64,000 nucleotides of DNA from Alphaproteobacteria bacterium (GCA_965237415.1 CBDEFM010000002.1:832001-896000); one strand, 5' to 3'; positions 12,812-40,149 are shown, counted from the stretch's first letter. The notes: a model not told the origin generated them from the sequence alone. A program made the numbers and translations.

Positions 12812-13419
12812 GCCGTCTGAACCGCCTTGCGGCGGTCGCGGCCCCGGCCGCGAAGCGGCTGCCGCCGCTTGGGGGGATTGAATGGACTGCTCCACGTCGT
12901 GAAGTCCGATCGTGCCACACGTGCTCGCTACAGCAACCCTGCGGGTCCTCCGCTCCGCTACGGCCTGGCCCAAGAAGCTCTAGGGCGGGCCGTGAAAGTC
13001 GCCGACCGAGAAGTTGGGCTTACGCGAACTCTCCGGCACCTCGCGTGTGGCGCGCCGGCCCCTGAAGCGCGGGGCCGCCGCCTCGGCCCGGCGCTCCCTG
13101 GAGCCCGGCACGCGGCAAGCAGCACCCAGCGCCATACCAGGCTGCGCCGTCGTGCATCCCTCCAACGACCCAGTCCTTGGCGGGTGCTACTCACCGCGCA
13201 CCTCAAATGCCAACTGGAAACCAGTCCAATCTCGACGACCCCGCGCCGGGCCTCCCCTCGCTGCACGACGCCCAACTTCCGCACCAAGATCGGCGACTTT
13301 CCGCACCAACCCCCGCCCAAGAGCTTCTAAGGCCAGGTGCTTCCGCTGCGCGCGCGTGTCCCGAAAGGACATCACGACGGGGCACAGGGTCCCGGAGGAT
13401 GACAGACAAGGAGATCGTC

Positions 13420-14337
13420 ATGATCGACACCACCGCAACCCAGACCGCATCGCCCACCGCCGCCGTCTGCGAGAGCCTCGCCCTCTTCGGCGCAAGCCCG
13501 GAGCGCGGCGAGCTCGACAGCCGCGAGGTCTGGGACGAGGACGACGCCATCGACGCCCTCGGCGAGGCCATCCGCGTCATCGTGGACGGCGTCACCGTCG
13601 AGGGGACGCAGCTCGCCGACGAGCGCGAGGCCCTGATGTGGGGCTTCGTGAACATGCTGCACTCGCAGGTCGCCCGCCTCGACCGCACCGTCGACCGGAT
13701 CGTGCCGGAGATGCGCGACCTCGAACGCGCCCAGGACGGCACCGAGGTGAAGACGTGGGAGTTGCAGCTCCAGACCGACCGGGCACACAACCTCGGCGAC
13801 CGTAGGGACGCGTTCGAGAAGATGCGCGATACCGCCGCCGAAGCCTACCGCGTCCACACCGGCGATGTCTGGCGCCCGCGCCACGGATCGCACGCCAGCC
13901 AGACCGGCAAGCTCACCTCGGCCGCCATCGACGCCCGGGACTTCCAGCGCGCACGGAAGGACCGCGAGACCCGGGCGCACCTGCCGGAGGGAACCCTGGT
14001 GGCCATCACCGGCGGCAAGCAGGTCATGGATGCGGACTCGGTCTGGACCACGCTCGACCGGGCGCGCGAGAAGTACGGCGACATGGTTCTGCTGCACGGC
14101 GGCGGTCCCGGCATCGAGAAGATCGCGGCGAGCTGGGCGGAGGCGCGCGGCGTCGATCAGGTCGTCTGCCGCCCGGACTGGAACGCCCACGGCAAGGCCG
14201 CCCCCTTCCGGCGCAACGACGAGCTGCTGAACCTGCTCCCGAAGGGCGTCATCGCCTTCCCCGGCTCAGGCATCACCGGGAACCTCGTCGACAAGGCCCG
14301 CCAGCTCGGCATCCCGGTCATGAACGTCGCTGCGTGA
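13420..14337 (+). CDS. DUF2493 / YspA-like SLOG-family protein
   Basis: C-terminal VAITGG...VLLHGGGPG...WAEARGV...PDWNAHGKAAPFRRNDELL...IAFPGSGITGNLVDKAR; AAGGAG RBS. Confidence 0.85.
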   Translation: MIDTTATQTASPTAAVCESLALFGASPERGELDSREVWDEDDAIDALGEAIRVIVDGVTVEGTQLADEREALMWGFVNMLHSQVARLDRTVDRIVPEMRDLERAQDGTEVKTWELQLQTDRAHNLGDRRDAFEKMRDTAAEAYRVHTGDVWRPRHGSHASQTGKLTSAAIDARDFQRARKDRETRAHLPEGTLVAITGGKQVMDADSVWTTLDRAREKYGDMVLLHGGGPGIEKIAASWAEARGVDQVVCRPDWNAHGKAAPFRRNDELLNLLPKGVIAFPGSGITGNLVDKARQLGIPVMNVAA

Positions 14338-15840: not shown

Positions 15841-18800
15841 ATGGTAGCCACCCTCGCCCAGGCGGCCTCGGCCGCGTACTACCTGGAGAGCCAGCGCTCG
15901 TTCCGCCATCCCAACGAGTACTACACGGCGGGCGAGGAGCCGGACGGGGTGTGGTTCAACCCCAAGGGACTGCTCGGCCTCGAGAACGGCGGCAAGGTCG
16001 ACAGCAGCGACTTCCACCGGCTCTATCACGGCTTCGCGCCGGACGGCTCCAGCAGACTCACCAGGAACGCCGGCAGCGACCAGCGCTCTCCGGGCGTGGA
16101 CATGACCTTCTCGGCCGACAAGAGCGTGTCCGCGCTCTGGGCCATCGCCGATCCCGCGCTCCGGGCCCGGATCGAGGAAGCCCACAACGACGCCGCCCGG
16201 GTGGCGCTGGAAGAGACGGTGTTCCGCTACTGCGCGTATACGCGGATCCGGGACAGGGAGGGGCGGATCAGGGCCCTGCCTGCCGATATCTCGGTGGCGA
16301 TGTTCCAGCACGGCACCAGCCGGGAGAACGATCCGCAGCTTCATACCCACTGCGTCATCTTCAATGCAGCCCTTACCCGCGAGGACGGCAAGTGGCGGGC
16401 CATGCACCAGTACCCGGTCTACAGCTGGGCCAAGGCCGCGGGCGCGGTCTACCGCAATGCCCTGGCCTGGAACCTCCGCGAGAGCCTGGGCATCCGCATG
16501 GAGCAGTACGGTCCCGATGGCGGGCTCACCCGCATCGAGGGCATGCCGGAGGACCTGCAGGTCTTCTGGTCGAAGCGGCGGAAGGCGATCGTCGCCAAGG
16601 CCGGAGAGCTGGGCATTCCGTCGCTCGGCAACGCCTCGCGCATGGCCGGCGTCAACAAGCTGACGCGGGCGGGCAAGTCGCACGACAACGACCCGGAGGT
16701 GCGACACCGGCGCTGGCACGAAGAGGCCGAAGGCTTCGCCGAGCGCGAGGAGCTGATCGCCTCCGTGACAGGGCATGAAGTGAAGACCACGCGGGAGGCG
16801 ATCCGGGAGCTGACTGGCCGGCTGGACGATCTTCCCGCCCACCTTGCCCGGCAAGAAGCCGTGTTCCGCCGCCCGGACATGGTGGAGGCGGCGGCCAATG
16901 CTGCGGCAGGCCTGATCGGCCCTGAAGCCTTGAGAACCGCCATCGAGCGGCTTCGACGCAACCCCGAGATCGAGCGACTGGAGCCGAAGAAGCCGACAGC
17001 GGAGTCGCTCGCGGGAATGGCCCATACCGAGATCTATTCCACCCGCCACAATCTCGGGCTGGAGCAGGCGGTCAAGGACATGGCAGAAGCCATGGCCGCC
17101 GATACCGGCCACGGGCTGCCTGAAGGGGCGGTCGAGGAGAAGGTGGAGACGCTGCTGGAGCAGGGCTATCCGCTGAGCCAGGAGCAGTCGCTGGCGATCC
17201 GCCATGCCACCCTGAAGGGCGGACGTGTTGCGGTGATCGAGGGCGCGGCGGGCTCGGGCAAGACCACCACGCTCAGGCCCATCACCGACCTGCACAAGGA
17301 GCACGGCTACGAGATCGTGCCGACCGCCGTCGCCTGGCGCACGGCGGTGGCGCTGGGAGACGACTGCGACGCACGCGCCTACTGCGTCGACAAGCTTCTC
17401 AAGCTGGCCGCCAAGGAGCAGGTCGAGATCGGCCACAAGACCCTGATCGTGGTGGACGAGGCGGGGATGCTATCGACGCGGCAGGCCCATCACATCCTTC
17501 AGCTCTCCGAGCGCCACGGGGCCAAGGTCGTGTTCGCCGGCGACACCCGGCAACAGCAGCCGGTGGAGGCAGGTCCGGGGCTGAGGCTGATCCGCGACGT
17601 CGCCGGCAGCGTCCGCGTCGACCGCATCAGGCGCCAGAAGGCGGACCTGGAAGACGTGCTGGTCCATGTCCACAAGGAGACGACCGAGCAGGCCCGATTC
17701 CGGGCCGGGCTTACGAACCCTCAGGAGCACGACGCGATCCTCGCGGACTACGAGGCGATGGAGAGAAAGCCGGTATTCACGCCGTGGCAGGTGGCGGTCT
17801 CGGAAGCCTTGAGGGACGGGGAGGCGGAGAAGGCCATCGAGGCGTGGCATCTGCGCAACCGGCTCCATCTCTGCCACGACGAGGAGAAGACGCTCACCCG
17901 TCTGGTGGATGACTGGGAGCGCCATGTGCGCACACACCCCGACACATCTACCGTCGTGCTCGCGCGCACGAAGGCCGAGGGACGGGCGCTGTCGTGGCTG
18001 ATGCGGCAGCGCGTGCTTGCGCGGACCTCCGACGCGAAGCGCGCCGTCATCGAGGTGAGCCGAGACCTGGACGGGCGGCTGACGGAGCCGCTGGAGATCG
18101 CGGTGGGCGACCGCATCCGCATCGGCGCCACGCAGTGGGAGAAGCAGCTCTTTAACGGCACAGTGGTCACGATAGAGGACCTGGAGGTCCGGCCCGCGGG
18201 TGATACCGCGGTCACGCGCAAGGCCCGCAATAGGACCGCGGCAGGGCGGCAGCCGGACGCGGACCGGTCCGAGCCTGAGTTTTGCGTCCACATCACCGCA
18301 CGTACCGACGACGGGCGGCGCGTGATCTTCCGCCATGACGAGATCCGTGACTGGCACGACAACATCCGCCTGGACTACGGCTATGCCATGACCATCGCGT
18401 CGGCCCAGGGCCTGACCGTCGACCGGGCGTTCCTTCTCGCAGACGACCGCCCGGCGCGGGAGACGATCTATCCCGCCGCCACCCGGCACCGCGAAGGCCT
18501 GGACGTCTACGTCAACCGGTCTCCCATCGTCTTCGACATCGCGGACAGCCGTCCCGAGGACGAGGCGGAGCGGCCGGTGCTGGACAGCGATATCCGTGGG
18601 TATCTGGCCGAGCGCTGGTCCCGCTCGCAGCCCAAGGAGGCGGCGCTCGATTACGTCTCCGACGGTATGTGGCGCGATGCGAGGGAGAGTGCACGGGCCG
18701 GCATCGCAACTCGCGCAGCCAGACCGGCCGCCATAAGGCATGGCGGTCCCGGGGATGAACAGCGAGAAGCGTCCGAGGCACAGGCGGCGGCGAACGACAA

Positions 18801-19974
18801 CGCGATCGTGCGCATCGCTCAGGAAATCCGTCACGCGGTCAACGGCTGGCGCCACGGAGTCGCCGTGGACGCGTTCGCGGCGGAGCGCGCGCAAGTGCTG
18901 GCCGCCTGGGACGAGCTGCGCGAGCGGACGCGCAACGAGGGCGACGCGGTGGCGCTGAGCCCCGCATTCCGCGAGACCCTCGACCGGCACGGCGCGCTCA
19001 TGAAGCAGGCCGCATCCTTCCGCCGTCGTCCGCAGGTGTTCGAGCGGCTGCTGGCCGAGCGCGCCGGGATCGGCGAAGGCGAGATCGAGCAACTCGGAGA
19101 CGAGCATGCCCGTGCCGGCAGGTATCTCAGGTCCGTCAAGGCCAGGACGTCACACGCAGCACGGCAGGAAGCACCGCACGAAGAGCCGGGGATCCTCGAG
19201 GCCATCGCAGCCGAAGCCGCCGCTCCCTCCGCCGGGCCCGCTCCCGAACGGCACGCTCCGTCCCGGACCGTGGAAGAGCTTGCCCCCGGCCCGGAGCGGG
19301 ATACCCGTCCTGACTGGAACACGCTCTACAAGGAGCTGCAACGGGACTGGAACGATCTCGTCGCACGCTCAGAAGAGCCCGATCTTCCGCTACTCCTGAT
19401 GGACGGGTACGACGCACTGATCCACCGCGTCCGCGCCCTCTTCGATCATCCCGACCTGTCCGAGAGGGCACATAGCGTGCTCGACCAGCTCCTCGACTAC
19501 CATGACGAGGAGACCGAGACCCGCCAGACCGCCGAGGGCTATCTGGCTTTGGCGGAGCGTCATGTCGAGGCGTACAAGGCCCTTGAGCGGCAGGCCAGCG
19601 AGCGCGGCATTCCCGTTGTCCGCCTCGACGCCTGGCCTGAATGGCGCGAGGCTGCCGTGATGCTGGCAGCCACTGGCAAGGCCATCCTCTCCAATGATGA
19701 GAACTATGGCGCCTATCTCGACGCCATCACGATTGGCAAGGCCCGTGCACGACTTACGGTCGAGCAGCTGACCAACCGGCTTCGCGAGAACCGCACCCGC
19801 ACACCAAGGCCGGAGGTACGACAGCCCCGGCGCGAGCCGACGCCCAAGCAGGAGCAGGGCTTCGCTCATTTTCTCGATGACCGCGAGCAGCTCAGAGAAC
19901 TACGTGATAAGGCCGAACAGCGCGACCGCAACCGCAGTAGGCACCTCCGGAGGAGCCGAGGCCTAAGCCTGTGA
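15841..19974 (+). CDS. MOBF (TrwC/TraI-like) relaxase-helicase
   Basis: Two YY pairs (AYYLES, NEYYTAG), DMTFSADKSVS, HUH QHGTSRENDPQLHTH, WSKRRKAI, Walker A GAAGSGKTT, VDEAGM, YGYAMTIASAQGLTVD. Confidence 0.95.
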   Translation: MVATLAQAASAAYYLESQRSFRHPNEYYTAGEEPDGVWFNPKGLLGLENGGKVDSSDFHRLYHGFAPDGSSRLTRNAGSDQRSPGVDMTFSADKSVSALWAIADPALRARIEEAHNDAARVALEETVFRYCAYTRIRDREGRIRALPADISVAMFQHGTSRENDPQLHTHCVIFNAALTREDGKWRAMHQYPVYSWAKAAGAVYRNALAWNLRESLGIRMEQYGPDGGLTRIEGMPEDLQVFWSKRRKAIVAKAGELGIPSLGNASRMAGVNKLTRAGKSHDNDPEVRHRRWHEEAEGFAEREELIASVTGHEVKTTREAIRELTGRLDDLPAHLARQEAVFRRPDMVEAAANAAAGLIGPEALRTAIERLRRNPEIERLEPKKPTAESLAGMAHTEIYSTRHNLGLEQAVKDMAEAMAADTGHGLPEGAVEEKVETLLEQGYPLSQEQSLAIRHATLKGGRVAVIEGAAGSGKTTTLRPITDLHKEHGYEIVPTAVAWRTAVALGDDCDARAYCVDKLLKLAAKEQVEIGHKTLIVVDEAGMLSTRQAHHILQLSERHGAKVVFAGDTRQQQPVEAGPGLRLIRDVAGSVRVDRIRRQKADLEDVLVHVHKETTEQARFRAGLTNPQEHDAILADYEAMERKPVFTPWQVAVSEALRDGEAEKAIEAWHLRNRLHLCHDEEKTLTRLVDDWERHVRTHPDTSTVVLARTKAEGRALSWLMRQRVLARTSDAKRAVIEVSRDLDGRLTEPLEIAVGDRIRIGATQWEKQLFNGTVVTIEDLEVRPAGDTAVTRKARNRTAAGRQPDADRSEPEFCVHITARTDDGRRVIFRHDEIRDWHDNIRLDYGYAMTIASAQGLTVDRAFLLADDRPARETIYPAATRHREGLDVYVNRSPIVFDIADSRPEDEAERPVLDSDIRGYLAERWSRSQPKEAALDYVSDGMWRDARESARAGIATRAARPAAIRHGGPGDEQREASEAQAAANDNAIVRIAQEIRHAVNGWRHGVAVDAFAAERAQVLAAWDELRERTRNEGDAVALSPAFRETLDRHGALMKQAASFRRRPQVFERLLAERAGIGEGEIEQLGDEHARAGRYLRSVKARTSHAARQEAPHEEPGILEAIAAEAAAPSAGPAPERHAPSRTVEELAPGPERDTRPDWNTLYKELQRDWNDLVARSEEPDLPLLLMDGYDALIHRVRALFDHPDLSERAHSVLDQLLDYHDEETETRQTAEGYLALAERHVEAYKALERQASERGIPVVRLDAWPEWREAAVMLAATGKAILSNDENYGAYLDAITIGKARARLTVEQLTNRLRENRTRTPRPEVRQPRREPTPKQEQGFAHFLDDREQLRELRDKAEQRDRNRSRHLRRSRGLSL

Positions 19975-20211: not shown

Positions 20212-21117
20212 TTAATCGCGATTTCTAAATCTATCCATACACGCGCAAACTAACAGGACTGCCAAATATGGCACTGCCTTGCTAATTTCCTGCACCGGAT
20301 CAGATACAGACTCTCCGGAGTTGATTTCAAACACAAGGCTGCCAATGCCCTGCTTTGCTTCTACTGAAACGTACAGATCCATGGCATATGTTCCTAGCAT
20401 TGCCAATAGAGTAATCGCAAAGACCCGTCTCCAGAAAAAAGCCGGGTTATGCAACAAAGTGAATACAAAAGTAAGCAAACCAACACCACCCGACACCAAC
20501 AATCGTGCTGAGGACGTCCATTCCAGTGGACCCAACGAGAACCAACTTATCACTGCTCCAATCAACGCAACTCCTAATGACATACATAACCAAACTAGAG
20601 ACGTGTTTTGTCTCGCAATCTCACCAGCCACAATCCTTTCTCTGTGACGAGCGGACATTTCTACTTGGAGCAGATCTTGAAAACGAACACTAGCAGCCCT
20701 AATCCTATTGAAGTCCGTCGCCGAGACCCGCAACGCCGCGACCTCTCCACTCCGCGCTATAACCGTTGCTGACCGCTTTTTTCCCAGTTCAATGGCAGCC
20801 ATCTCACCGACTTGATTAGGTGCTTCTCGCCTTGTTCTGTTTCCCGATTTAAAAACAACATCTACTTCTCCCGACAACAGAAACAAAACAACATTATCTT
20901 GCTCTCCCCGTCGAATAATTCTATCCCCCCTTTGGAAAAATACTGTTTCGCCTACGCCCATCAGACGACTAACAATTGTTTGGTCTCCGTTCACGGCAGG
21001 GTTTGTCGACAGCGTGTCGGCAATTCGAGCGTATCCGCTATTTCCCGCAAACGTGCCACGTAGCGTGGTCTCTGGGCCGAGGCCTATTGCCCGGCGTAAT
21101 TTCGCCGCCCAATACAT
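20212..21117 (-). CDS. Cyclic-nucleotide-binding domain fused to ~4 transmembrane helices; candidate Pycsar-type effector
   Basis: CNBD motifs GDRIIRRGE..LFLLSGEVDV..VGEMAAIE..RSATVIA; four hydrophobic segments in the C-terminal half; overlaps the WYL gene stop; GAGG RBS. Confidence 0.85.
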   Translation of the reverse strand: MYWAAKLRRAIGLGPETTLRGTFAGNSGYARIADTLSTNPAVNGDQTIVSRLMGVGETVFFQRGDRIIRRGEQDNVVLFLLSGEVDVVFKSGNRTRREAPNQVGEMAAIELGKKRSATVIARSGEVAALRVSATDFNRIRAASVRFQDLLQVEMSARHRERIVAGEIARQNTSLVWLCMSLGVALIGAVISWFSLGPLEWTSSARLLVSGGVGLLTFVFTLLHNPAFFWRRVFAITLLAMLGTYAMDLYVSVEAKQGIGSLVFEINSGESVSDPVQEISKAVPYLAVLLVCACMDRFRNRD

Positions 21118-21974
21118 TTTTCTACCTCGTCGATGTTTTCAATGTGCAGCAGAAAACTGCTGCTGTTTCTTATTTTTCCGTCTTGTGTCTTGCGAGGATC
21201 GAATCCATAATGACGAAGATAATAGAACAGCATCGCTTGCCGTACACTAAGTCGCAGATGGCCGTTGGTCATTCCGTACTCAAATTCAAGCCGCTCTTTC
21301 TTGTGTTGATCAATTGCGGGATCGACCTTGAGAATCACGTCCACGTTGTTGTGCCAAGCCGTATCTACTGGGATCTCGCAGGCCGGCTTATCTCGCAGTT
21401 CTGTCCGCTCGATTCGCGACAAAACAAAATCGGAATAGCGCGTCCGCTCGAGGTCGTAAGCTCGCATGTGCCATCTGTGACCATCGCTGGCGATGGCGTG
21501 TGGTAACAACATCCGGAATCCTGTACTTCCCGAGCTCAAGGATATGTAGCGCGCATGCAAACAGATTCGGGAGCGCATGCTTTGCAGCACATGCATGAGG
21601 ACACGAGAAGATATTTTGCGCGATTGGGCCGAGACCGCGTCGAAGACCGGAATCGACTTAGCCCAGATCTCTCCTTCCCGACGGTAGCCACAGCTCAAAA
21701 TGTCTAGATGCATTAGATATTCGAAGGCCTCTCCCGTTATAAGAACCGGGCGAAACTTAGAAGTGGGTACGTATGCTTTCTGCCTGGGATCGTAAAGCAT
21801 ATTGTCCGGACAAGCATCCATATAGCTGGTGAGATCGATTGTGGCCTGCTGCAAAGAGATCGAAAATTGATCCTGCAGCTTCTTGCGCCCCACTGACCCC
21901 TCCCAGTGGAGTTGAAACTCGATGAACTCGAAACGTCTACGTATGCTTACCTTCAGATCCTGCAATTCCGACAT
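21084..21974 (-). CDS. WYL-domain transcriptional regulator, CapW/BrxR-like
   Basis: RRFEFIEFQLHWEGSVGRKKLQDQFSIS..YDPRQKAY (wHTH), YISLSS..RMLLPHAIASDGHRWHMRAY..YSDFVLSRI (WYL), EYGM..VRQAMLFY. Confidence 0.9.
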   Translation of the reverse strand: MSELQDLKVSIRRRFEFIEFQLHWEGSVGRKKLQDQFSISLQQATIDLTSYMDACPDNMLYDPRQKAYVPTSKFRPVLITGEAFEYLMHLDILSCGYRREGEIWAKSIPVFDAVSAQSRKISSRVLMHVLQSMRSRICLHARYISLSSGSTGFRMLLPHAIASDGHRWHMRAYDLERTRYSDFVLSRIERTELRDKPACEIPVDTAWHNNVDVILKVDPAIDQHKKERLEFEYGMTNGHLRLSVRQAMLFYYLRHYGFDPRKTQDGKIRNSSSFLLHIENIDEVEKCIGRRNYAGQ

Positions 21975-22002
21975 CTCGTGTCACCCCAGCACGTCCTCCG
22001 CT

Positions 22003-22041
22003 TTTATAGCATATTGACATTTTCTAGAAAAGCTTTATTAT
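22003..22041. promoter_or_regulatory. Overlapping divergent promoters with a central palindromic operator
   Basis: Plus strand: TTGACA (22014-19), 16 bp, TATTAT (22036-41). Minus strand: TGcTATAAA (22003-11). Perfect palindrome TTTTCTAGAAAA at 22020-22031. Confidence 0.75.
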
Positions 22042-22113
22042 ATGGAAGGATTGGGCGTGCCGTGCGCTGCAACCGTATCACGGGGCGCGTACTGATGTTG
22101 AAAGGAGTAAGCA

Positions 22114-23718
22114 GTGGCTTGGGGGCAAGAGCAGGCGCAGAGGCGCATCAGAAAGCTGATCGGGGAAGCCCCGACGATCGACGTACATCGGTTTTCTGAG
22201 GAGTACATGCCGCTTTACGAAGTGCGCGCGGCCCAGCTGACGGCTGCTGGGGAGCGTATAGCACCACCGCTGTTTGACCTCACGAAGGGTTCGGCGGTGT
22301 TAGTCGACACAGTCCAGATATACATCGCCATTACCAACTACGACGAGTATCGCATCGAAGAGGACTCAGAAACCGAGACGTCGCATGAGCGGGCCCTCCG
22401 GTTCCTGCATCTTTACTATAGTGCTTGCGACCGCGTAGCTGAAGTGACTCCTGCACAGCGGGTCGATTTCCATGGTAGCCGGATGCACGCTGTTGTAATC
22501 GATCGGTCCGGTGCCGGCATCACACGACACAGTATCGCCGACGCCCTGGCTTTCGTCCGAGATTTTCGAATAGTTGCCGAGCGAGCAAACAGCGAACTCG
22601 CGAGAAGCGCTTTGACAGCGCGATTTCGCGTTGGAATCGACGCGGGAACTTGTGTTGCAATCAATAACGGGACCGGGATAGAGCAGGAACCCATGTTTCT
22701 TGGTAGCGCGGCAAACTATGCCGCCAAGCTGGCAGAGGGCGATCAGCCGGGTATCTTCCCGTCCGATCGCGTGAGGGCCCTCGTGGGCCTGGAGGAGCTG
22801 GGGGTTCTCGAGTTCGCGCACGGTCTCGACGAGGCTTCCATTGATCAGGTCATCGCAAGTCGCGATGAAGGCGGGCGGGCAGCTCTCCCGGCGTTTGCCC
22901 ACACCGCAAGCACCGAATCCATTGTCGAGACCTGGCGGGAGGAGATTGTCAAGGCGGAGGTATTTGATCCTACAATTCCCAAATTCTCGTTTCATCACAA
23001 GGAGCCGCCCCTAAGCGACATCGACTATCGGGATCTATCGCCGAGCAACTCTATTAGGATGCCATTAATTTCAGTGTTTGCCGACCTTTCTGGCTATACC
23101 CAATACGTTGATGAAGCGATCACGAGCGGTCGTATCGGAGAAGCAATCCGGGCTCTGTACGTAATTCGTGAGGAGCTTCAGAATGTCGTGGAGGAGGACT
23201 TTGACGGGCGCAAGGTGCGCTTTATTGGAGATTGTATTCACGCTCTGCTGGCAGAAGGCACGAGATCAGAGACGGACGACCGCAAGAGTGTCATTCAAAG
23301 TTTTGAGTGTGCCGGTGGCCTTCGCTCTTCTTTTTTGATCTGTCAAGAGGAGCTCACCGGCCTCGAGGCGCTCGGCCTCACCATCGGCATTGAGTACGGT
23401 TGGACGCCGGTCTCCCGCATAGGAATTCGTGGCGTAAGGTCCGTCCGACTTGCTTCCAGCGGCGCAACAGCTACCTCCGAGCAAATGCAACGCGACTGCG
23501 GTGACAATGAGGTCAAGTTCGGTCCAAACGCAATGACCCATATCCCTGACGCGTATCATGATCTCACCAATGCCTCTGGCGTGGCAGCCGCTTTGACGTA
23601 TGACGATGTAGTCTTGTGCTTTGCCCCTCAGACCGCTCCAGCAACGACGCGACGCCATGTTCGCGCGCACACACCGGCTGACGGGACGGTGGCCAGGGCA
23701 CACTTCAAGACCATATGA
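22114..23718 (+). CDS. Tandem-domain class III nucleotide cyclase, PycC-like
   Basis: N-domain RVGIDAG..PMFLGSAANYAAKLA with degenerate metal sites; C-domain VFADLSGYT..RFIGDCIHA..IGIEYG..RIGIRG; AAGGAG RBS, GTG start. Confidence 0.85.
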   Translation: MAWGQEQAQRRIRKLIGEAPTIDVHRFSEEYMPLYEVRAAQLTAAGERIAPPLFDLTKGSAVLVDTVQIYIAITNYDEYRIEEDSETETSHERALRFLHLYYSACDRVAEVTPAQRVDFHGSRMHAVVIDRSGAGITRHSIADALAFVRDFRIVAERANSELARSALTARFRVGIDAGTCVAINNGTGIEQEPMFLGSAANYAAKLAEGDQPGIFPSDRVRALVGLEELGVLEFAHGLDEASIDQVIASRDEGGRAALPAFAHTASTESIVETWREEIVKAEVFDPTIPKFSFHHKEPPLSDIDYRDLSPSNSIRMPLISVFADLSGYTQYVDEAITSGRIGEAIRALYVIREELQNVVEEDFDGRKVRFIGDCIHALLAEGTRSETDDRKSVIQSFECAGGLRSSFLICQEELTGLEALGLTIGIEYGWTPVSRIGIRGVRSVRLASSGATATSEQMQRDCGDNEVKFGPNAMTHIPDAYHDLTNASGVAAALTYDDVVLCFAPQTAPATTRRHVRAHTPADGTVARAHFKTI

Positions 23719-24512
23719 GTTCAATTGACCAGCTCAATAGGGCAGTACCAAGTTGGGCGACAATCGCAAATCGGATTGGAAACTACTTGCACGTTATTGC
23801 CCGCGCACCCATGCCTAGTGGTGCATTCGGCCGGACCTACGGATTGGTCATCAAATCAACCAAAGACGATAAAGCACAGGTCAGTGAAAGCACCGCTCAA
23901 GCACTGCTTCCTAATTGTTGCCTCGAACGCCACATTAATTCGGACGGCACATTCTGCCTGCATCTTGATTCCACTAAACCTATTTTGAATTCTGATAGCG
24001 CCATCATTTGGTGGGTTAGTCTCCGAGATTACCTAAATCATCAGGACTATTCATCCAAACGGCGCAAGTGGCCTATGCATGCCCAACTGAGTCACGGTGA
24101 CGCAGCTCTAGTTCAACTGCGGATGGAAAAACTCGCAGAGCCGTTGGCGTGGAAACAGGAAGTACTTACTTCGATTTTTCGAGGCAAAGGATGGCTTGCA
24201 AATGAGTTGCCGCGTCGAAGCAAAGACAAGTCTAAACTCGTTAATGCACGAGGGCCTTGTCCTAGAGGATGCCGTACCAAACATCACCCCTATACACGTC
24301 AGGCGTGTCAGCGCGTTAAGTGCACTCCAAACTGCAAGAAGCAGCATCGCCAGATCCTTCGGGTAAATTGTCCAAATAGAGCACTAGTGGAAGAGCTTGC
24401 ATTACTTGACAATTTGAGACGTGAATCGGAGGAAAGCGTCGTTGCGGACCTTCGTTCCAAAGGCGTGCAGTGTTGTAGAACTATGGATGACTGTCCATTG
24501 GCCGACAAATAG
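23715..24512 (+). CDS. Prokaryotic E2 (UBC-like) domain protein with Cys-rich C-terminus
   Basis: ERHINSDGTFCL resembles the UBC active-site motif; C-terminal PCPRGC..C..C..C..CPNR..CCRTMDDCPL; ATGA overlap with the cyclase. Confidence 0.75.
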   Translation: MSSIDQLNRAVPSWATIANRIGNYLHVIARAPMPSGAFGRTYGLVIKSTKDDKAQVSESTAQALLPNCCLERHINSDGTFCLHLDSTKPILNSDSAIIWWVSLRDYLNHQDYSSKRRKWPMHAQLSHGDAALVQLRMEKLAEPLAWKQEVLTSIFRGKGWLANELPRRSKDKSKLVNARGPCPRGCRTKHHPYTRQACQRVKCTPNCKKQHRQILRVNCPNRALVEELALLDNLRRESEESVVADLRSKGVQCCRTMDDCPLADK

Positions 24513-24736
24513 ACCGCGAGTTGGCACTGTCCGCTAGCACTTGCATCATTGGCTACGCGGCCACGTCGACGGAGTCGCCAGGATCGCAATTGGCGTCACG
24601 CCTGACATCACCACCGTCAATCTGTGTAGTTTGCTATTTTCCAAGTATGGACTATTTTAATTTGCCCGCTACACAGCTAGATCAGCGACGTGTCCTGCCG
24701 GGTTAGCGCACTTTGTTCCGGCGTCGCACGACAGTG

Positions 24737-25405
24737 CTAACGCCAACCTTTATCCAAGCGATTTCTGGCGTCGACTAGGGACAGCTCGGTGAACAGATCC
24801 CGCCGACGCTCGAACAGACGCTCCTCGATCTCGTCCTTCACACACCGTGGCGGGAGATCGCCCTCTGCAACAGCCTCACGCTCGTTGCGCAGCCAAGCCA
24901 TCGCTCGATAAAGGTGGTGCAGGCGCAAGCCGGCCCCGCCGAGGATGACGTAGTCGACCATCCACCTCCGCACGAGCAGTCCGAGCCGGAGACGAACAGA
25001 CAGTGGAGCACGCTGATGAACACCGCCCGCTCGACGGCGAACTCGAAGCCGCGCTCACCCAGTGACTGCGTCACCACGCAGCCCGGCACTAGCCGCTCCC
25101 AAGGCCGACCGAACAGCAAAGGCCTGCCGATGCGGGTTCAGACAAGACGGCGCGCCGCCAAGTGGGATAGCTCCATCGCCCGCTCGCAACGACCCGCCGG
25201 CGAGCCAATCACGCGATTGAGCTTGCCGCTGGCGTGCAGCACATCCATGCGGCCGAGCGCACGAATCGTGCGCTGGCGTACCTCCTTGCCCTCGCGGATG
25301 CTGTCCGCGAGGTAGTGGTATCGGTGTCCCCGAGCGCCATTTTCGCGGACAGATATCGAAGCGTAGTCCCGATGGCCAAGCCCCAAAACACGCGGACTCC
25401 GCTCG
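24737..25405 (-). mobile_element. IS1634-family transposase remnant (frameshifted, truncated)
   Basis: Fragments in different frames: REGKEVRQRTIRALGR; FEFAVERAVFISVLH.LFVSGSD; LHHLYRAMAWL..KDEIEERLFERRRDLF. Confidence 0.8.
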
Positions 25406-25650
25406 GCATCCCAAGATGCTTCACAATTCTATTTCAAGTAGCGGGAAACCCGACTGCAATATCCCTCGCTTCAACAAATTGGCCAAACTTTCCAACCCTA
25501 AATCCGGAATCCAATGTTGAACTTTGTCTAGACACTCCCGGGGAAAGAATAACCGCGCCTTCCAGTCTTTCAGACTGCCAAATTTACGTACCGCCTCAGT
25601 TCAACCGATGCATCTACGCGGCGCACATGATCTGATTTCCAATTAATTCT

Positions 25651-26346
25651 TTACTTCAATGACCACCAATACGAAGAGCGATATATTCGACGATTATTTT
25701 GCGCGGTCCACTTTCGCTCCTCCCACATATTCTTACCGTTGCTAAACTTCGTATCGTCGTTCATGCTACCGTATACTCTATCTGTAATCCAAGTAGCATA
25801 TGAATCCGACATTGCTGACAACTTCGCGGCATGATTCGCCGCTCTCCCAATCCATACTATATCGTTATTGTTGCGAATGCCTGCTTTTGCAGCCATGACC
25901 TTTGTGCTATCCACCCCCGTTACATGTTTCATCACGTACTTGGTGTTTTCGTAATGCTTCTTTAGCATAGGCTGTATTACGTTCCTTACTGCCCAGTTTA
26001 TCTTTAATGCAGTTCTCACCGCGCTCGTGTTCTTGCTTTCTCCAATGAATATCCCCATTACGCGGTCGCCATCAAACGACCTAACCTCCCCTCCCTCGCT
26101 TCGGATTAGTCTAGTAGCGCACTGAAGGAATGCCTTGTAGTTTTCCGCGGCAAACCAATCCTTATAGTTATCAACAAGCATGGTCGATGCTGACAAATCA
26201 GTATAGAGGATTGTAGCTTGTAAATCGACTGCCTCATTTCCGTGCGATAAGTCGACGTCTTCGGGAACTTTCCTGCCATCTCGGCGTCGCCACTTCTCAA
26301 CATATATGCCGCTCACTTGCTTCTGTAAGTCTGCCTTCAACCCCAT
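25651..26346 (-). CDS. pycC: Single-domain pyrimidine cyclase, PycC-like (Pycsar)
   Basis: ATILYTDLSAST, YKAFLQCA, SFDGDRVMGIF.G.SKNTSAVRTALKIN, GIRNNNDIVWIGRAANHAAKL, C-terminal MW..W..YRSSYWW; matches my recollection of Burkholderia-type PycC along its length. Confidence 0.88.
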   Translation of the reverse strand: MGLKADLQKQVSGIYVEKWRRRDGRKVPEDVDLSHGNEAVDLQATILYTDLSASTMLVDNYKDWFAAENYKAFLQCATRLIRSEGGEVRSFDGDRVMGIFIGESKNTSAVRTALKINWAVRNVIQPMLKKHYENTKYVMKHVTGVDSTKVMAAKAGIRNNNDIVWIGRAANHAAKLSAMSDSYATWITDRVYGSMNDDTKFSNGKNMWEERKWTAQNNRRIYRSSYWWSLK

Positions 26347-26801: not shown

Positions 26802-27535
<734 letters not shown>

Positions 27536-28593: not shown

Positions 28594-29328
28594 GTGTCGG
28601 GAATGAATGGCTTGTTCAGACTCAAGGCTTCTTTCGCGGGGTGTCTAGTCGCTCTGCTACTGGTCGGATGTGCCGACGTACCGGAAGAAGCTGTAACACT
28701 CTCGGTGACCATCGGTAACGATCTCGAGGAAGTTCACCGGTCGCACCGCGAACTTGCCATCCGTTACTTTGAACGAAGCCGCGACGATATCAATCGCTTC
28801 GTAGACGATGTCTACCGCCCGGCCTTCGTGCAGAAGGCATTGACGAATATCACCTATGAGTACGAAGTCGGCGAACCGGAGTTGACCTTCTTGCCAATTC
28901 TACAAACCGAGTTCGCGAGACTGAACGCCGGTGAAGAAGGTGCGGATCCACTGTTCTACATGCATTTCGTCGTGGATGAAGCGGTCAGAACAATCGAGCA
29001 AACACGCCTCGATTTGCTCAAGCCCATTGAGAGTCGCGAGCGAGAGGTCCTAAGAGCCATTGACGATGCCTATAGCAGCGTAATGAACGCACATGCAATC
29101 GTCACCGGCCACCTAGCCTCTGTCCGCCGCGTCCAACAAGCTCAGGACGAACTCGTGGCTGATGCAGGACTTAAGGATATCCGCAGAAAGTTCATCGACA
29201 GGGCGGCGGACATATCGGATCGCGCTTCCGATCTTCTAGCGAAGGCCCGGACCACGTCCTCGACCCTTGATGATCTCGACGAGACAATCGAGAGGGTCCA
29301 GGAAGCGTGGAGTGAGGGGATACAATAG
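28594..29328 (+). CDS. Putative helical lipoprotein of unknown function
   Basis: Lipobox-like LLLVG|C after a hydrophobic stretch; amphipathic helical body. Confidence 0.75.
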   Translation: MSGMNGLFRLKASFAGCLVALLLVGCADVPEEAVTLSVTIGNDLEEVHRSHRELAIRYFERSRDDINRFVDDVYRPAFVQKALTNITYEYEVGEPELTFLPILQTEFARLNAGEEGADPLFYMHFVVDEAVRTIEQTRLDLLKPIESREREVLRAIDDAYSSVMNAHAIVTGHLASVRRVQQAQDELVADAGLKDIRRKFIDRAADISDRASDLLAKARTTSSTLDDLDETIERVQEAWSEGIQ

Positions 29329-29337
29329 GAGGCCTTA

Positions 29338-29643
29338 ATGTCCAATGCAGAGGATAGGAAGAAGGCGTTTCAACGATCTGTTCGGAAGCGGTTTAAGGAG
29401 ATCGACGAGGAATTGCGTGGTCGGCACAAGAAGCATCTGGACGCGCTTCTGGGAATCAGCCGCGCGGAGATCGACGCGATAACGCCAGACACGACGGACA
29501 TGGATACCTACAACAAGCTGATCGTGGTTGTCACGGAGGCGACCCGCAAGAATGTGGCAATTGCTGATCTGCGTCAGACCATTCGCGAAATGGGGACCGT
29601 GGCCATAGATATTGCCAAGAAAGTTCCCGATCTTATGCGGTGA
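29338..29643 (+). CDS. Small hypothetical protein co-transcribed with the lipoprotein
   Basis: AGGAGG RBS, starts 9 bp after the previous stop. Confidence 0.75.
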   Translation: MSNAEDRKKAFQRSVRKRFKEIDEELRGRHKKHLDALLGISRAEIDAITPDTTDMDTYNKLIVVVTEATRKNVAIADLRQTIREMGTVAIDIAKKVPDLMR

Positions 29644-30046: not shown

Positions 30047-31168
30047 GTGCGAATGTCACCCACTAAGTTTTTCGGCTCGGACGTCTACACGCACTACACG
30101 GCCACCTACGCATGGAACTCGAACCAGATGGCCCATGCGATGATGGGCCTGGCCGGTACCATGCTGTTTGTGCACGCCGCCCCGCGGCTCGGCCTCGAAG
30201 TCTGGTACGGCGCGCTCTTCTTCGTGATACCGTTCCTTAAGGACACGGCCGATTATTGGGTCGACCGCTCCAACACCGGTGGAGTGTTTGGAGAGACGGC
30301 CGCGCATCGCCGCGAACTGCTCGTCGACGGGGTGACCGATAATTTGTTCTGGAGCGTGGGAATGGTGCTCGCGCTGTTCATGGCCCTGAGCCGCGATGGC
30401 ACGCCCTGGTACCTTTACATCGTCTTTGTCGCCGCGGTACTGCTGATCGTGGCCGCCGTGTGTTGTGTCGGGCGCCTCTTCAACGCCCAGAAGAGACGCT
30501 ACGATTCGTCGGGCCTGCCCTACTATTTCCGCCTACCGTGTTATGACGGCAATCTGGTCGCGGCCTGGGTCATCGATTCGAAGGCTTCGCGTGATGCTAC
30601 TAGCCCGGTTGAGGAGGTCGAACGGTTCGTCTACCGGCACGATTGCCGAGCGCAGCATCTGATACTCGTGGGGCCGCCGCGCTCAAGCAAGACCACCTTG
30701 GCGGCCGCCATCGGCTCGGGCCTGATCGTCAGGGGTCAAACAGTGCGCTATATGTCCAAGATGCAGCTCATCGAAGAATTCAATATCTCGGGCGAACGCA
30801 GCGCTTCTCAGCCCGCCCATCCTTGTGACGCCGGGATTCTCATTACGGACGACCTGGATGAGCCAACCGGACTCGATCCCATTCTCCCCGCTCTTGCGTG
30901 CAAGTCCACCGTCTGGGTAGTCACCAGCCCGCGCTCCGGCAAGGCGGAAGACTGGACAGACTTGTTGGGCAGAGGCCTGCGCGGCCGTTTGGTCGCTGTG
31001 AGACTCGACACGAAATCGTGTCGACACAGGAATAATTGCAGAAGCCCTCGATCGCTCGCGATCGCGCTCTCGAGTGCATCGCTCCTGGTATCGGCGATCG
31101 CTGGCGTCGGTTCGATCATTCTAATTGTGTTACCAATCGATTTGTTTGCCAATCAGCTTCTTCGGTAA
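30047..31168 (+). CDS. Membrane protein fused to a P-loop NTPase-like domain
   Basis: About 4 N-terminal hydrophobic segments, LILVGPPRSSKTTLAAAIG (variant Walker A), ILITDDLD (Walker B), C-terminal TM. Confidence 0.7.
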   Translation: MRMSPTKFFGSDVYTHYTATYAWNSNQMAHAMMGLAGTMLFVHAAPRLGLEVWYGALFFVIPFLKDTADYWVDRSNTGGVFGETAAHRRELLVDGVTDNLFWSVGMVLALFMALSRDGTPWYLYIVFVAAVLLIVAAVCCVGRLFNAQKRRYDSSGLPYYFRLPCYDGNLVAAWVIDSKASRDATSPVEEVERFVYRHDCRAQHLILVGPPRSSKTTLAAAIGSGLIVRGQTVRYMSKMQLIEEFNISGERSASQPAHPCDAGILITDDLDEPTGLDPILPALACKSTVWVVTSPRSGKAEDWTDLLGRGLRGRLVAVRLDTKSCRHRNNCRSPRSLAIALSSASLLVSAIAGVGSIILIVLPIDLFANQLLR

Positions 31169-31198
31169 GCAGAGGCCACTAGGAAGGGAGTATCTGCA

Positions 31199-32098
31199 AT
31201 GAGTCAAGATTGGGCAGCAATTGTGGCTTCTTTATGTATACTCGCTCTATACTTCGTGACGGCCTTCGCAGTTAGGAGCAGGTGGGATGGCACAGCGCTA
31301 ATTCATCCTCTCAAGGTTACCGCCCATATTAGAGGCCGGGCAAGTTTGTCTCGAACGCAGGTATTTTTCTTCACCTTCATATTCATCTGGATTACAATTT
31401 ATTGGTTATTGAGAGAGGGGGAGTTGGCACCCATCAATGACACGGTCCTGGCTTTGCTGGGAATTGCAGTAGCAGGAGCTGGATTGGGTCGAGTAGCTGA
31501 CACCACTCGATTTCGTGTCAGCGGAGAAAATTGGGCATGGGCAAAGGCAAAGAGATGGATTTCTCAAGACTTTTCCAAAGCTTTACCCCCTGACCCATCC
31601 AACAATACGGTAGGAACCACGCCGAAGCTGAGCGATCTGTTTATGTCTGACCAAGGTTTCGAGGTTGCCAGATTTCAGGCAGTGGCCTTTTCATTGGTCG
31701 TGGGTATCGCCCTCTTATACAATGGCGTAACGGTGGCTCATAGTGCAGACTTCGGCGATTTTTCTGTGGAGGGACACTACCTCACTTTGATTGGCATCAG
31801 CCAGGGAGTTTATGTTGGAGGTAAGTTGACCGGAGGCAATCCGATCGGCGAATTGAATAAGAAGCTGGACCAACTCCGACCACTGGAATTGGCGTTTACG
31901 CAAACTGTGGCAAGGTCCGAACTTTGGCTTCGAGCTGAAGAGGAGCACCGAACCATGAAGCGGGCCCGGGAGGAAATTGCGCCCGACGAGTATTCCGCAT
32001 ATAGCAGCGTTGCATCCGAGGCAGCCACACTCGTTCAGGAGCTGACCGGCGTGGTCGTTGCACAAGACCGGATAGAACCAAGACTACCGCCGCGATAA
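31199..32098 (+). CDS. Multi-pass membrane protein of unknown function
   Basis: ASLSRTQVFFFTF, LALLGIAVAGAG, ARFQAVAFSLVVG, LIGISQGVYVGGK; GGGAG RBS. Confidence 0.75.
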   Translation: MSQDWAAIVASLCILALYFVTAFAVRSRWDGTALIHPLKVTAHIRGRASLSRTQVFFFTFIFIWITIYWLLREGELAPINDTVLALLGIAVAGAGLGRVADTTRFRVSGENWAWAKAKRWISQDFSKALPPDPSNNTVGTTPKLSDLFMSDQGFEVARFQAVAFSLVVGIALLYNGVTVAHSADFGDFSVEGHYLTLIGISQGVYVGGKLTGGNPIGELNKKLDQLRPLELAFTQTVARSELWLRAEEEHRTMKRAREEIAPDEYSAYSSVASEAATLVQELTGVVVAQDRIEPRLPPR

Positions 32099-35334: not shown

Positions 35335-35886
35335 CTACCGCATTCTCATCACCGAGTTTCTGACAATTTTGGCGGTGCTCAGCCCGAGACCCATATCAAT
35401 GCACAGCTTCAGAAATTCCTCGGCCGCATCCCATCTAGAGAGGTGGTACTCGCGGGCAAGATCCCGCGCGCATTTGGCGATCGGCACGATATCACTCGAC
35501 GTGACCCACTTAGGACTACCAACCCTCTCCTCGAACTTCGCTATCAGCGGTTCGGGAAGGTCGGCTCCGTAAAGAAAGTACCGCAGGTAGGGGAGAAAGT
35601 GTGGGTGCGTGTAGATGTCCCGGCCCGTGCATCCATTCCGTTCGAATGCGCCCTTGTGAGATGTCTTGCCCCGCCCCACGAAGTAGGCTGGGTTATTCCA
35701 GTAGCTCAGTCGTTCTCTTGGTATTGCTTTACGATCATGCAGAGATTTGAGGAGCGCCGGGATGGACCTGTCATTCGCAACATAGGCTTTGCGTGCCTCA
35801 TTGTCTCTCAGAAGCCACGGGGTCAGGTTGATGGCTTCAAGAAGCGCCTTTTCTTCGTCGATCAGCTCGATGTGATATTTGATCAT
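35335..35886 (-). CDS. Hypothetical protein
   Basis: 183-aa ORF with plausible globular composition; no family recognised. Confidence 0.65.
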   Translation of the reverse strand: MIKYHIELIDEEKALLEAINLTPWLLRDNEARKAYVANDRSIPALLKSLHDRKAIPRERLSYWNNPAYFVGRGKTSHKGAFERNGCTGRDIYTHPHFLPYLRYFLYGADLPEPLIAKFEERVGSPKWVTSSDIVPIAKCARDLAREYHLSRWDAAEEFLKLCIDMGLGLSTAKIVRNSVMRMR

Positions 35887-36379
35887 TTCTGCGAACTCAG
35901 AGGATGTCGCCGACTCACTCGAAGATAACCATCACTTCGCACCGGGCAGTGGACGCCCTCGCAGAGGCTTACGACGTCGTTCCAAACGGCCACCATGAGA
36001 CGTGCCTGGGAGTGCCTCCTCCCTCGTGCGCACGGCTCGGTTCCACCACCCAAACGAGCAATAGCCGTTCCGGCTCTCGTCATGACATGACGTCGCAAAC
36101 GGGTCAACTATCCCGGAGTGTCTCGACGAATGGTGGATCTGCCTGCACGCGCCTCACTCGTGGGCTTCACAACTGTTCGGGACATAGCCTTCCGGAATTT
36201 CCACCCAGTACAATCAAGGACGCATCCAGGATGCTCAGCTCAAGGCGCCAGGCAGTCGAATTCATAGCCTTCCTTCCGCGCTCTTCCTCCTGCCGGAGCC
36301 ACTTGCAGACATCCGCAAAAGGCTGTTCCAGAATGCGTTCGGCCTCGTGCCCGGCACGAGTTCAATATGGAGATCAACA

Positions 36380-36766
36380 ATGAACGAAAATCGGACAAGG
36401 CTGACACACTCAACTTTAGAGCGTCGCCGCCAAATGGTTGAGCCTGCAGATTTTTTCATCAAAGGCTCCCTGACGGTCTCTATATCCGGCTTCATTCTGG
36501 TGAAGTCATCCGAAATGTTTTCACAGGGCACTCTGTGGCTCGCCGTGGGATTTTTCATGGTGCTTGCATCGATATCTATCTTGTCTCTGGGCCTGACCGC
36601 CTTGGCGAGTTCCGCGTCCGCTTTCCAGGCGTTGCTGTCAAGCGACCCCCCAAAACGTGGATTCAGCGAACTTGCAAAGAAATGCTTTTCCTGGTTGTTT
36701 GCGATCCTGGTCGCCGCCACCCTCATAGGTCTTTTCCGCAGCATGGGGTTCCTAATGTTGCCATGA
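36380..36766 (+). CDS. Small membrane protein (~3 TM)
   Basis: GGAG RBS before ATG 36380; three hydrophobic segments. Confidence 0.5.
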   Translation: MNENRTRLTHSTLERRRQMVEPADFFIKGSLTVSISGFILVKSSEMFSQGTLWLAVGFFMVLASISILSLGLTALASSASAFQALLSSDPPKRGFSELAKKCFSWLFAILVAATLIGLFRSMGFLMLP

Positions 36767-39897: not shown

Positions 39898-39919
39898 GTC
39901 TCGATGACCTCCTCGATCG

Positions 39920-39973
39920 AACGTGGGGAAAGCGATGCTGCCCCACGTTCTCACCAACGCAAACGTGGGGAAA
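39920..39973. repeat. Candidate integrase arm-type binding sites
   Basis: AACGTGGGGAAA at 39920-31 and 39962-73, with inverted CCCCACGTT at 39941-49, between integrase and tRNA. Confidence 0.6.
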
Positions 39974-40073
39974 CTACATGAACTGCCCGGAACGGTCAAG
40001 AACGATTTTTGAGGCTACATCATTGATATAAAGGACTTATTCGGACTTTTCTGGAACTCTCTGGAAGAAGGAT

Positions 40074-40149
40074 TGGTGCCGCAGGAGAGACTCGAACTCC
40101 CGACCCATGCATTACGAATGCATTGCTCTACCGGCTGAGCTACTGCGGC
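40074..40149 (-). tRNA. tRNA-Thr(CGT)
   Basis: GCCGCAG acceptor stem, anticodon arm ATGCA-TTCGTAA-TGCAT, GTTCGAG T-loop, encoded CCA. Confidence 0.96.

Follow-up and report, generated by a model that had tools for sequence, protein, structure and literature searches.

A probable E2-associated Pycsar-type module carried by a conjugative element of an alphaproteobacterium

Genes and features of the locus

Five genes at positions 20212-26346 of a 64,000-nucleotide stretch of DNA from Alphaproteobacteria bacterium (GCA_965237415.1, CBDEFM010000002.1:832001-896000; the whole stretch is hereafter called the window) probably make up an E2-associated anti-phage module of the Pycsar type (resistance to phages through a pyrimidine cyclase system), based on cyclic mononucleotides and carried as cargo by a conjugative element integrated at tRNA-Thr. 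Open reading frames (ORFs) were called in this segment and library scans were run with Pfam, PADLOC-DB v2 and NCBIfam; for the five proteins the last of these returned nothing but a weak CRP match. All five genes listed in a first-pass annotation were recovered as ORFs, with positions and strands unchanged. The features of the locus are the following:

20212-21117 (-): effector ORF, 301 amino acids
21084-21974 (-): WYL regulator ORF, 296 amino acids
22014-22041 (+): promoter-like site, TTGACA-16-TATTAT, in the 139-bp divergent intergenic region, agreeing with the consensus at 11 of 12 positions
22114-23718 (+): tandem cyclase ORF, 534 amino acids
23695-23703 (+): codons of the tail motif R528-A529-H530, followed by four residues (FKTI)
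23715-24512 (+): lone E2 ORF, 265 amino acids
24513-25650: non-coding spacer with transposase-like fragments
25651-26346 (-): single-domain PycC ORF, 231 amino acids

Neither cyclase has a Pfam match, and both belong to the PycC clades of class III-like cyclases. The tandem cyclase matches the PADLOC PycC model PDLC00762 over its full length (5.3e-172), and the single-domain PycC, the ORF of which is intact, likewise matches PDLC00766 (1.9e-101), so that both were correctly named in the earlier reading. Among structures in the Protein Data Bank (PDB), the tandem cyclase is similar to 6yii (2.1e-66, residues 57-507) and the single PycC to 7r65 (1.3e-56, residues 3-229), which PMC11224242 describes as clade-A PaPycC and clade-B BcPycC, respectively. 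According to the same source, tandem PycC is what the original Pycsar classification calls clade A, with two cyclase domains in succession, and domain alignment together with the 6yii match revealed such a pair in one chain of the tandem cyclase. When its halves were aligned with single-domain PycCs, domain 2 was found to carry the metal-binding residues D324 and D373, invariant in 18 sequences, and to lack the Asn/Lys motif, and domain 1 to lack both Asp residues and to retain AANYAAKL. Since the Asp pair lies in domain 2 and the Asn/Lys motif in domain 1, the tandem cyclase is, as judged from these motifs, a pseudo-heterodimer with a single composite active site, in which domain 1 is degenerate and domain 2 is the predicted catalytic domain. 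The single PycC keeps both Asp residues and the Asn/Lys motif (LYTDL, FDGDRVM and AANHAAKL, versus LYADL, YDGDRVM and AANYAAKL in BcPycC), and was assigned to clade B.

The effector had been annotated as a cyclic nucleotide-binding domain (CNBD) followed by four transmembrane (TM) helices, and this architecture is borne out by a Pfam match to cNMP_binding (PF00027, 4.5e-10) and by four hydrophobic segments at the C-terminus, modelled by AlphaFold2 as helices 173-194, 202-222, 225-249 and 274-300 (mean predicted local distance difference test, pLDDT, 83.1). It matches the PADLOC Pycsar effector model PDLC00730 (8.4e-107, residues 1-297), and its N-terminal half is similar to the CNBD of PycTIR (8jsk, 2.3e-10), the TIR part of which is not matched. 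Residues G104, E105, R115 and A117 of the phosphate-binding cassette are invariant in 21 sequences. By sequence and model, the effector is thus of the PycTM type, a CNBD fused to four predicted C-terminal membrane helices. As in Pycsar generally, a CNBD fused to a TM or TIR part is encoded near a cyclase, here with the WYL gene standing between the two. The 'TIR' label that PADLOC gives to PDLC00730 was rejected for this effector because the protein has no TIR match and no room for a TIR domain. The description of the model reads 'TIR' even though its full-length match is a TIR-less CNBD-TM protein, and the label looks either wrong or generic.

In the lone E2, Pfam detected two domains, E2-ntca at 9.4e-20 and E2-Crich at 1.2e-11, and the protein matches the PADLOC model PDLC00878 over its full length (8.1e-98), other PADLOC E2 models matching weakly. 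Residues C69, H73, C81 and H127, which lie within the motif R-H-I-N...F-C-L, do not vary among 53 sequences, and the AlphaFold2 model has a pLDDT of 94.8. In terms of sequence, the E2 consists of a domain resembling ubiquitin-conjugating (UBC) enzymes and a Cys-rich C-terminal domain, with a putative catalytic site formed by His73, Cys81 and His127. Its gene starts on the stop codon of the tandem cyclase gene (ATGA, ATG over TGA).

The regulator was proposed to be a CapW-type WYL protein, an assignment that stands: in addition to PF13280 (1.8e-8), it matches CapW (7tb6, 3e-42, residues 12-267) and BrxR (7t8k, 4.7e-36) and is, by its sequence, a CapW/BrxR-family WYL protein of the type with a winged helix-turn-helix, a WYL and a C-terminal domain. 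The end of its gene overlaps the start of the effector gene by 34 bp, and both the gene order and a similar overlap recur in relatives. Promoter-like sites as such are not above chance (three found versus 4.7 expected); the TTGACA box of the divergent region, in turn, does not vary among the 18 intergenic regions that were aligned and occurs in 30 of a set of 33. Furthermore, an operator-like inverted repeat, TCCTA-N5-TAGGA with at most one mismatch, overlaps the -10 box in 21 of the 33 intergenic regions (shuffle rate 0.5%). A point against regulation of this kind in the window is that its own intergenic region lacks the repeat even when two mismatches are allowed, so that regulation here may differ or be lost. 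The spacer of the window's promoter-like site holds instead a 12-bp palindrome, TTTTCTAGAAAA, different from the relatives' repeat.

By analogy with CapW and BrxR, the WYL protein may repress the divergent promoter. The likeness to these repressors comprises full-length homology, a regulator gene divergent from the defence operon and a conserved promoter; the differences are that the regulator is co-transcribed here with the effector and that the window's intergenic copy lacks the repeat of its relatives. BrxR and CapW homologues beside Pycsar have been published (PMC9122601, PMC13373217). The missing repeat, together with transposase fragments inside and around the locus, would also fit decaying or silent cargo, or cyclic nucleotide monophosphate (cNMP) signalling that serves the mobile element rather than defence; given that the five ORFs are intact, that catalytic residues are conserved and that every protein has a full-length match to defence-system models, we consider such an explanation very improbable.

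Recurrence in other genomes and relation to described systems

Searches for the tandem cyclase yielded 479 homologues at E-values of 1e-10 or below among 8000 candidates scored. One genome per species was then scanned and 65 loci were fetched via the tandem cyclase; ORFs were called in all of them, and the five window proteins served as queries for an iterative search of these ORFs, which were also grouped into clusters. The counts are to be read with this sampling in mind, which includes close kin and in that respect tells against the strength of the recurrence:

62 of 65 loci: complete tandem cyclase
52 of 65 loci: lone E2 directly downstream (52 of the 62 where the cyclase is complete and followed by 900 bp or more of sequence)
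47 of 65 loci: CNBD effector
32 of 65 loci: WYL protein
23 of 65 loci: single PycC of about 234 amino acids
27 of 65 loci: four-gene set
12 of 65 loci: all five genes

After merging at 90% or higher cyclase identity, 44 clusters remained, 39 with the E2, 18 with four genes and seven with five. No other gene family is conserved around the 65 loci according to the clustering of ORFs. Because the arrangement recurs in other genomes, it is far beyond chance, and the neighbourhood conservation that had been proposed as a check of the four- and five-gene sets was indeed found.

In the group closest to the window the order is [single PycC <- CNBD-TM <- WYL][tandem PycC -> E2], and it occurs in alphaproteobacteria of several orders and in Glaciecola. 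The core order in the window is the same, with the single PycC on the other side. Other groups have a CNBD-TIR protein in place of the TM effector (four were tested by Pfam) and no WYL gene. Plasmids carry the module, too: it was detected in 28 records, of which 12 are typed as conjugative, and on one Sulfitobacter plasmid the same layout lies between type IV secretion genes. Taken over the tandem cyclase homologues, the 65 species genomes and the plasmid records, E2-linked Pycsar is widespread.

In eight loci the cyclase is followed by a member of a family of about 610 amino acids, and the one member scanned (in locus L040) consists of Prok-E2_B and ThiF, that is, an E2-E1 fusion. Loci L039-L047 (e.g. 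L040:5838-10442), coming from Methylobacterium, Methylorubrum, Mesorhizobium and Aminobacter, encode a CNBD-cyclase fusion (382 amino acids; PF00027 and PF00211) ahead of the tandem cyclase and the E2-E1 fusion after it, with a class II ribonucleotide reductase alongside in the Methylobacterium-type loci; their cyclases finish in ...RHA. A further arrangement, [single PycC <- CNBD-TIR][tandem PycC -> E2] with no WYL gene, is present in Stenotrophomonas and Xanthomonas (L052, L053, L058, L061, L063 and L065). The original Pycsar paper reportedly tested a two-gene Pycsar of Xanthomonas, which may be this neighbour.

The locus had been presented as a new Pycsar variant, and this part of the claim has to be given up. 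Its layout is not unique, PADLOC-DB v2 (2023) already holds a full-length model for each of the four proteins other than the regulator, a form with an E2-E1 fusion was called 'Type II Pycsar' in 2024 in the discussion of 10.1101/2024.11.21.623953, and a 2026 preprint (10.64898/2026.08.12.744502) sets apart a 'Pycsar-like-4' subclade, the defining mark of which is the presence of neighbouring E2-like genes. Some Pycsar-like-4 loci are described there as having WYL or WYL-Pol-beta modules, a preference for ATP is predicted for the subclade, and several cyclases are reported at some loci. The module therefore belongs to a described, experimentally uncharacterised kind. Pycsar is unmentioned in the preprint of Ledvina 2023, and a domain-centric paper in Nucleic Acids Research (2026) says nothing about ubiquitin or E2 in connection with Pycsar. 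What stood of the earlier claim is a regulated Pycsar-type system, which is supported by homology and by conserved synteny. Its signal may be a cyclic pyrimidine, and two signal sources may share one effector.

Compared with Pycsar as described, the locus has cyclases that match PycC models, PaPycC and BcPycC, an effector with a CNBD and membrane helices, and a tandem cyclase of the clade-A form. It differs in that the described core has two genes, whereas here the E2 and the WYL protein are conserved parts, and in that two cyclases of different clades accompany one effector in the genome. With Pycsar-like-4, compared by description, it shares a Pycsar-related cyclase beside an E2-like gene and, in some loci, a WYL gene. 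The texts on Pycsar-like-4 and Type II Pycsar stress an E2 fused to an inactive JAB or to an E1, together with a JAB peptidase; here, in contrast, the E2 is unfused and has a Cys-rich domain. Both descriptions derive from comparative genomics only. The E2-E1 fusion and JAB peptidase of Type II Pycsar are absent among the scanned window ORFs, none of which has a ThiF or JAB match, yet the E2-E1 form does occur among relatives of the tandem cyclase (L040).

The cyclase product, the cyclase tail and the lone E2

By homology to PaPycC, with which it also shares the FIGDC motif, the tandem cyclase would be expected to make cyclic UMP (cUMP). Equivalents of the BcPycC residues Y50, D94 and R97 are kept by the single PycC and not by the tandem cyclase, in the catalytic domain of which the base-selecting positions D94 and R97 are occupied by I371 and C374. 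These substitutions could mean that the tandem cyclase produces cyclic AMP rather than cUMP or cyclic CMP, in which case the module would be Pycsar-like and no pyrimidine system, with two cyclases giving different signals; ligand modelling reported in 10.64898/2026.08.12.744502, which assigns an ATP preference to E2-linked Pycsar-like-4 cyclases, points the same way and counts against a pyrimidine product. We find this possible and rather doubtful: PMC11224242 states that clades A-D, tandem clade A included, turn UTP into cUMP, the alignment with clade-A PaPycC extends to 2.1e-66 with FIGDC in common, and the likeness of the tandem cyclase to Pycsar-like-4 is one of description.

The C-terminal tail of the tandem cyclase appears to vary with the type of E2 partner. 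All 52 tandem cyclases linked to a lone E2 carry the pattern [RQ][APS][HYF] within their last 15 residues (RAH in 33, RPH in 11), compared with 33 of 2041 internal 15-residue windows taken as a control, and the motif is followed by exactly four residues in 39 of these cyclases. By contrast, the cyclases ahead of the family of about 610 amino acids (8/8), and another located at the end of a contig, have ...RHA as their very last residues. The literature examined contained no reference to the tail motif.

A complex model of the tandem cyclase with the E2 reached a score of 0.81 in each of three runs, the best of three controls scoring 0.00. Among solved complexes, 58 of 80 attain the mark of 0.81, as do two of 110 mismatched pairs, counts that are only rough because self-supplied alignments were used. 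At least 80% of contacts agree between runs, and the partners have pLDDT values of at least 86. In the modelled interface, cyclase residues 493-504 (with the conserved LTYDDV) and 526-534 (VARAHFKTI) face E2 residues 70-87 and 101-131, so that A529 and H530 lie against H73, C81 and residue 125 of the E2, and A529 touches C81 and H73. At the other end of the cyclase (codons at 22114-22125), M1 and W3 are invariant in 18 sequences, and residues 3-6 contact the E2 in the same model.

A close parallel is offered by E2-CBASS (the 'short' type II form of CBASS, the antiphage signalling system based on cyclic oligonucleotides, as in SmCdnG-SmE2). According to 10.1101/2022.05.25.493364, its lone E2 processes the C-terminus of the cyclase, which becomes attached to an E2 cysteine and is then ligated to lysine, and PMC12948482 reports that the E2 cleaves a C-terminal fusion while forming a complex stable in sodium dodecyl sulphate. 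Both systems have a lone E2 beside the cyclase, and the geometry of the tail entering the E2 is equal in the model. The E1-free covalent linkage is described for SmCdnG-SmE2. At the present locus the cyclase is a class III cNMP cyclase and not a CD-NTase, the E2 belongs to a distinct family with no PDB sequence match even by profile, and the cyclase tail has R-A/P-H where a glycine site is described for SmCdnG (PMC12948482). Considered together, the variation of the tail motif with the E2 partner type and the modelled placement of the tail on the catalytic Cys suggest, by analogy with E2-CBASS, that the lone E2 exerts E1-independent covalent control over the cyclase.

A more specific version would have Cys81 of the E2 cut after R-A(-H), release the four-residue tail and carry the cyclase as a thioester or isopeptide adduct in a sortase-like, E1-free manner, the two cyclases forming a two-input or relay circuit that acts on one membrane effector; we put this forward tentatively, and doubt it more than we believe it. 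If it were true, R-A(-H) would be a non-glycine conjugation signal, unlike that of the E2-E1 forms, where RHA is already the end of the cyclase. The E2 could also act elsewhere, on the effector or on a host or phage protein, or serve as a structural partner only. For such a role one may cite full type II CBASS, in which the cyclase is conjugated to other proteins (PMC11153139). We nevertheless regard it as unlikely, in view of a tail motif that changes with the E2 partner type, a model that seats the tail in the E2 active site, and translational coupling of the two genes.

Several points weigh against the E2-linked Pycsar reading and especially against covalent control. The E2 has no match in the PDB either by its own sequence or by a profile of 26 sequences, and Foldseek returned eukaryotic UBC enzymes alone, at E-values of 0.03-0.15 and none at or below 0.001. 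The tail pattern was composed after the tails had been viewed and is, for this reason, a description and not a test. The complex score expresses model confidence, and solved complexes of E2 enzymes with tails may be partly remembered by the predictor. Finally, a literature search found no bench work on any E2-linked Pycsar.

On balance, the E2-associated Pycsar-type reading leads us to propose the following scenario. The WYL protein would repress the divergent promoter until a stress signal is received. The E2 would bind the cyclase via the conserved YDDV segment and attack the R-A-H motif four residues from the cyclase C-terminus with no E1 involved, as the lone E2 does on CdnG in E2-CBASS, and the resulting covalent link could hold or prime the cyclase. 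Upon infection, the cyclase would produce a 3',5'-cNMP (presumably cUMP, given the homology to PaPycC), which would bind the CNBD of the effector, causing the helices to damage the membrane and the infection to be aborted. The clade-B PycC at 25651-26346 might either provide this effector with a second input or be an orphan. From the tail motif and the docking pose arises the question of whether ubiquitin-like, E1-independent control of a signalling enzyme also evolved outside CBASS, with a cyclase of unrelated fold.

The second cyclase, the mobile element and its other cargo

The whole genome (two contigs) encodes one CNBD effector of this family and two cyclases; no relic of a second effector and no further cyclase were found in it. 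In a tree built from 22 single-domain cyclases, after two ORFs of less than 215 amino acids had been dropped, the single PycC of the window is sister to the cyclase of L006 (support 99/96, 70% identity). The order in L006 is single PycC, an adjoining CNBD-TIR gene (PF10137, 1.6e-25) and then a complete four-gene cassette. This locus (L006:2620-6892, from Leisingera sp. JC1) thereby combines two effector types, CNBD-TIR and CNBD-TM, in one cluster.

We lean, by a narrow measure, towards the single PycC feeding the same TM effector as the tandem cyclase. Its ORF is full length with every catalytic motif present, a cyclase of its family lies within the fetched flanks of 23 of the 65 loci, and a TM effector with a PycTIR-related CNBD is encoded 4.5 kb away. 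Moreover, in 12 of 13 mapped loci with the order cyclase<-CNBD<-WYL (L049 included) the single PycC stands directly downstream of the TM effector, the TIR effector lying in between in L006. What speaks against a shared effector is the position of the gene in the window, on the far side of the module and convergent to the E2 gene amid transposase fragments, and the fact that its sister stands beside PycTIR. These features are accommodated by a different explanation, namely that the single PycC is left over from a separate PycC-PycTIR Pycsar, the effector of which was lost by transposon activity, so that the working unit has four genes. The sister cyclase in L006 directly adjoins a CNBD-TIR gene, the window's PycC lies 1.1 kb from the E2 gene with transposase fragments on both sides, the four-gene set occurs in the absence of the single PycC in 15 of the 65 loci, and the genome has neither a TIR effector nor a relic of one. 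We give this explanation serious weight and somewhat less than even credence. If, as we lean to think, the effector is shared, the recurrent pairing of clade-A and clade-B cyclases with one effector would be a natural case of two sensors sharing one death switch.

The spacer that separates the single PycC from the E2 gene had been read as an IS1634 relic at 24.5-25.65 kb. The spacer holds transposase-like fragments, and a diverged copy (358 bp, 71.5% identity) is found at another place in the genome, adjoining a DDE_Tnp_1 ORF. The assignment to IS1634 is weak: NF033559 matches one ORF of 78 amino acids, 24737-24973 (-), with an E-value of 0.012 and 14.6 bits versus a cut-off of 100, and the spacer has no Pfam match.

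The surroundings of the five genes are those of an integrated element:

15841-19974 (+): TrwC-type relaxase-helicase of a conjugative element, directly left of the cargo (TrwC 6.6e-66, AAA_30 1.7e-41)
38722-39999 (-): tyrosine integrase (Phage_integrase, Arm-DNA-bind_3, Phage_int_M)
40074-40149: tRNA-Thr, adjoining the integrase; the two together mark the right end of the element

Farther left of the TrwC gene lie genes for a Toprim primase-like protein and a Strawberry-notch-type helicase. Low GC content of the genes had been noted and was confirmed, at 0.49-0.57 over 20-27 kb versus about 0.68-0.72 in the flanks; more broadly, it is 0.49-0.62 from 20 to about 39 kb versus about 0.68-0.73 on both sides, and beyond 40 kb it climbs to about 0.69-0.73. 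The tandem cyclase is present in one of 41 related genomes, the window's own, and in none of 20 other species of the genus. With the relaxase, the integrase at tRNA-Thr and this confinement of the cyclase to its own genome, the label of island cargo proved right, and the five low-GC, horizontally acquired genes are carried by a conjugative element that has integrated at tRNA-Thr. Outside the window, about 79 kb leftwards (G000:C2:793286-793300), the tRNA-Thr 3' end is repeated exactly over 15 bp and in the same orientation; this might represent the opposite end of the element, the match alone being at chance level (E 0.4).

Further cargo includes a fragment of an IS66 TnpA, an IS3-type transposase and, at 26802-27532 (-) just right of the single PycC, a toxin-antitoxin pair made up of a PIN-domain toxin and a Phd/YefM antitoxin. 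When ten other cargo ORFs were compared with PADLOC, just a weak IetA match (5.1e-4) was obtained, and cargo ORFs of 244, 101, 183 and 160 amino acids (28594-29643 and 35335-36744) have no Pfam, NCBIfam or PADLOC match. At 30047-32098 (+), an AAA-type ATPase with weak IstB and IetA-like matches is followed by a protein of 299 amino acids with no family match, and these two may form a further defence pair within the cargo. In the element backbone, a protein of 386 amino acids with a YspA/SLOG (YAcAr) domain is encoded at 13177-14337 (+).

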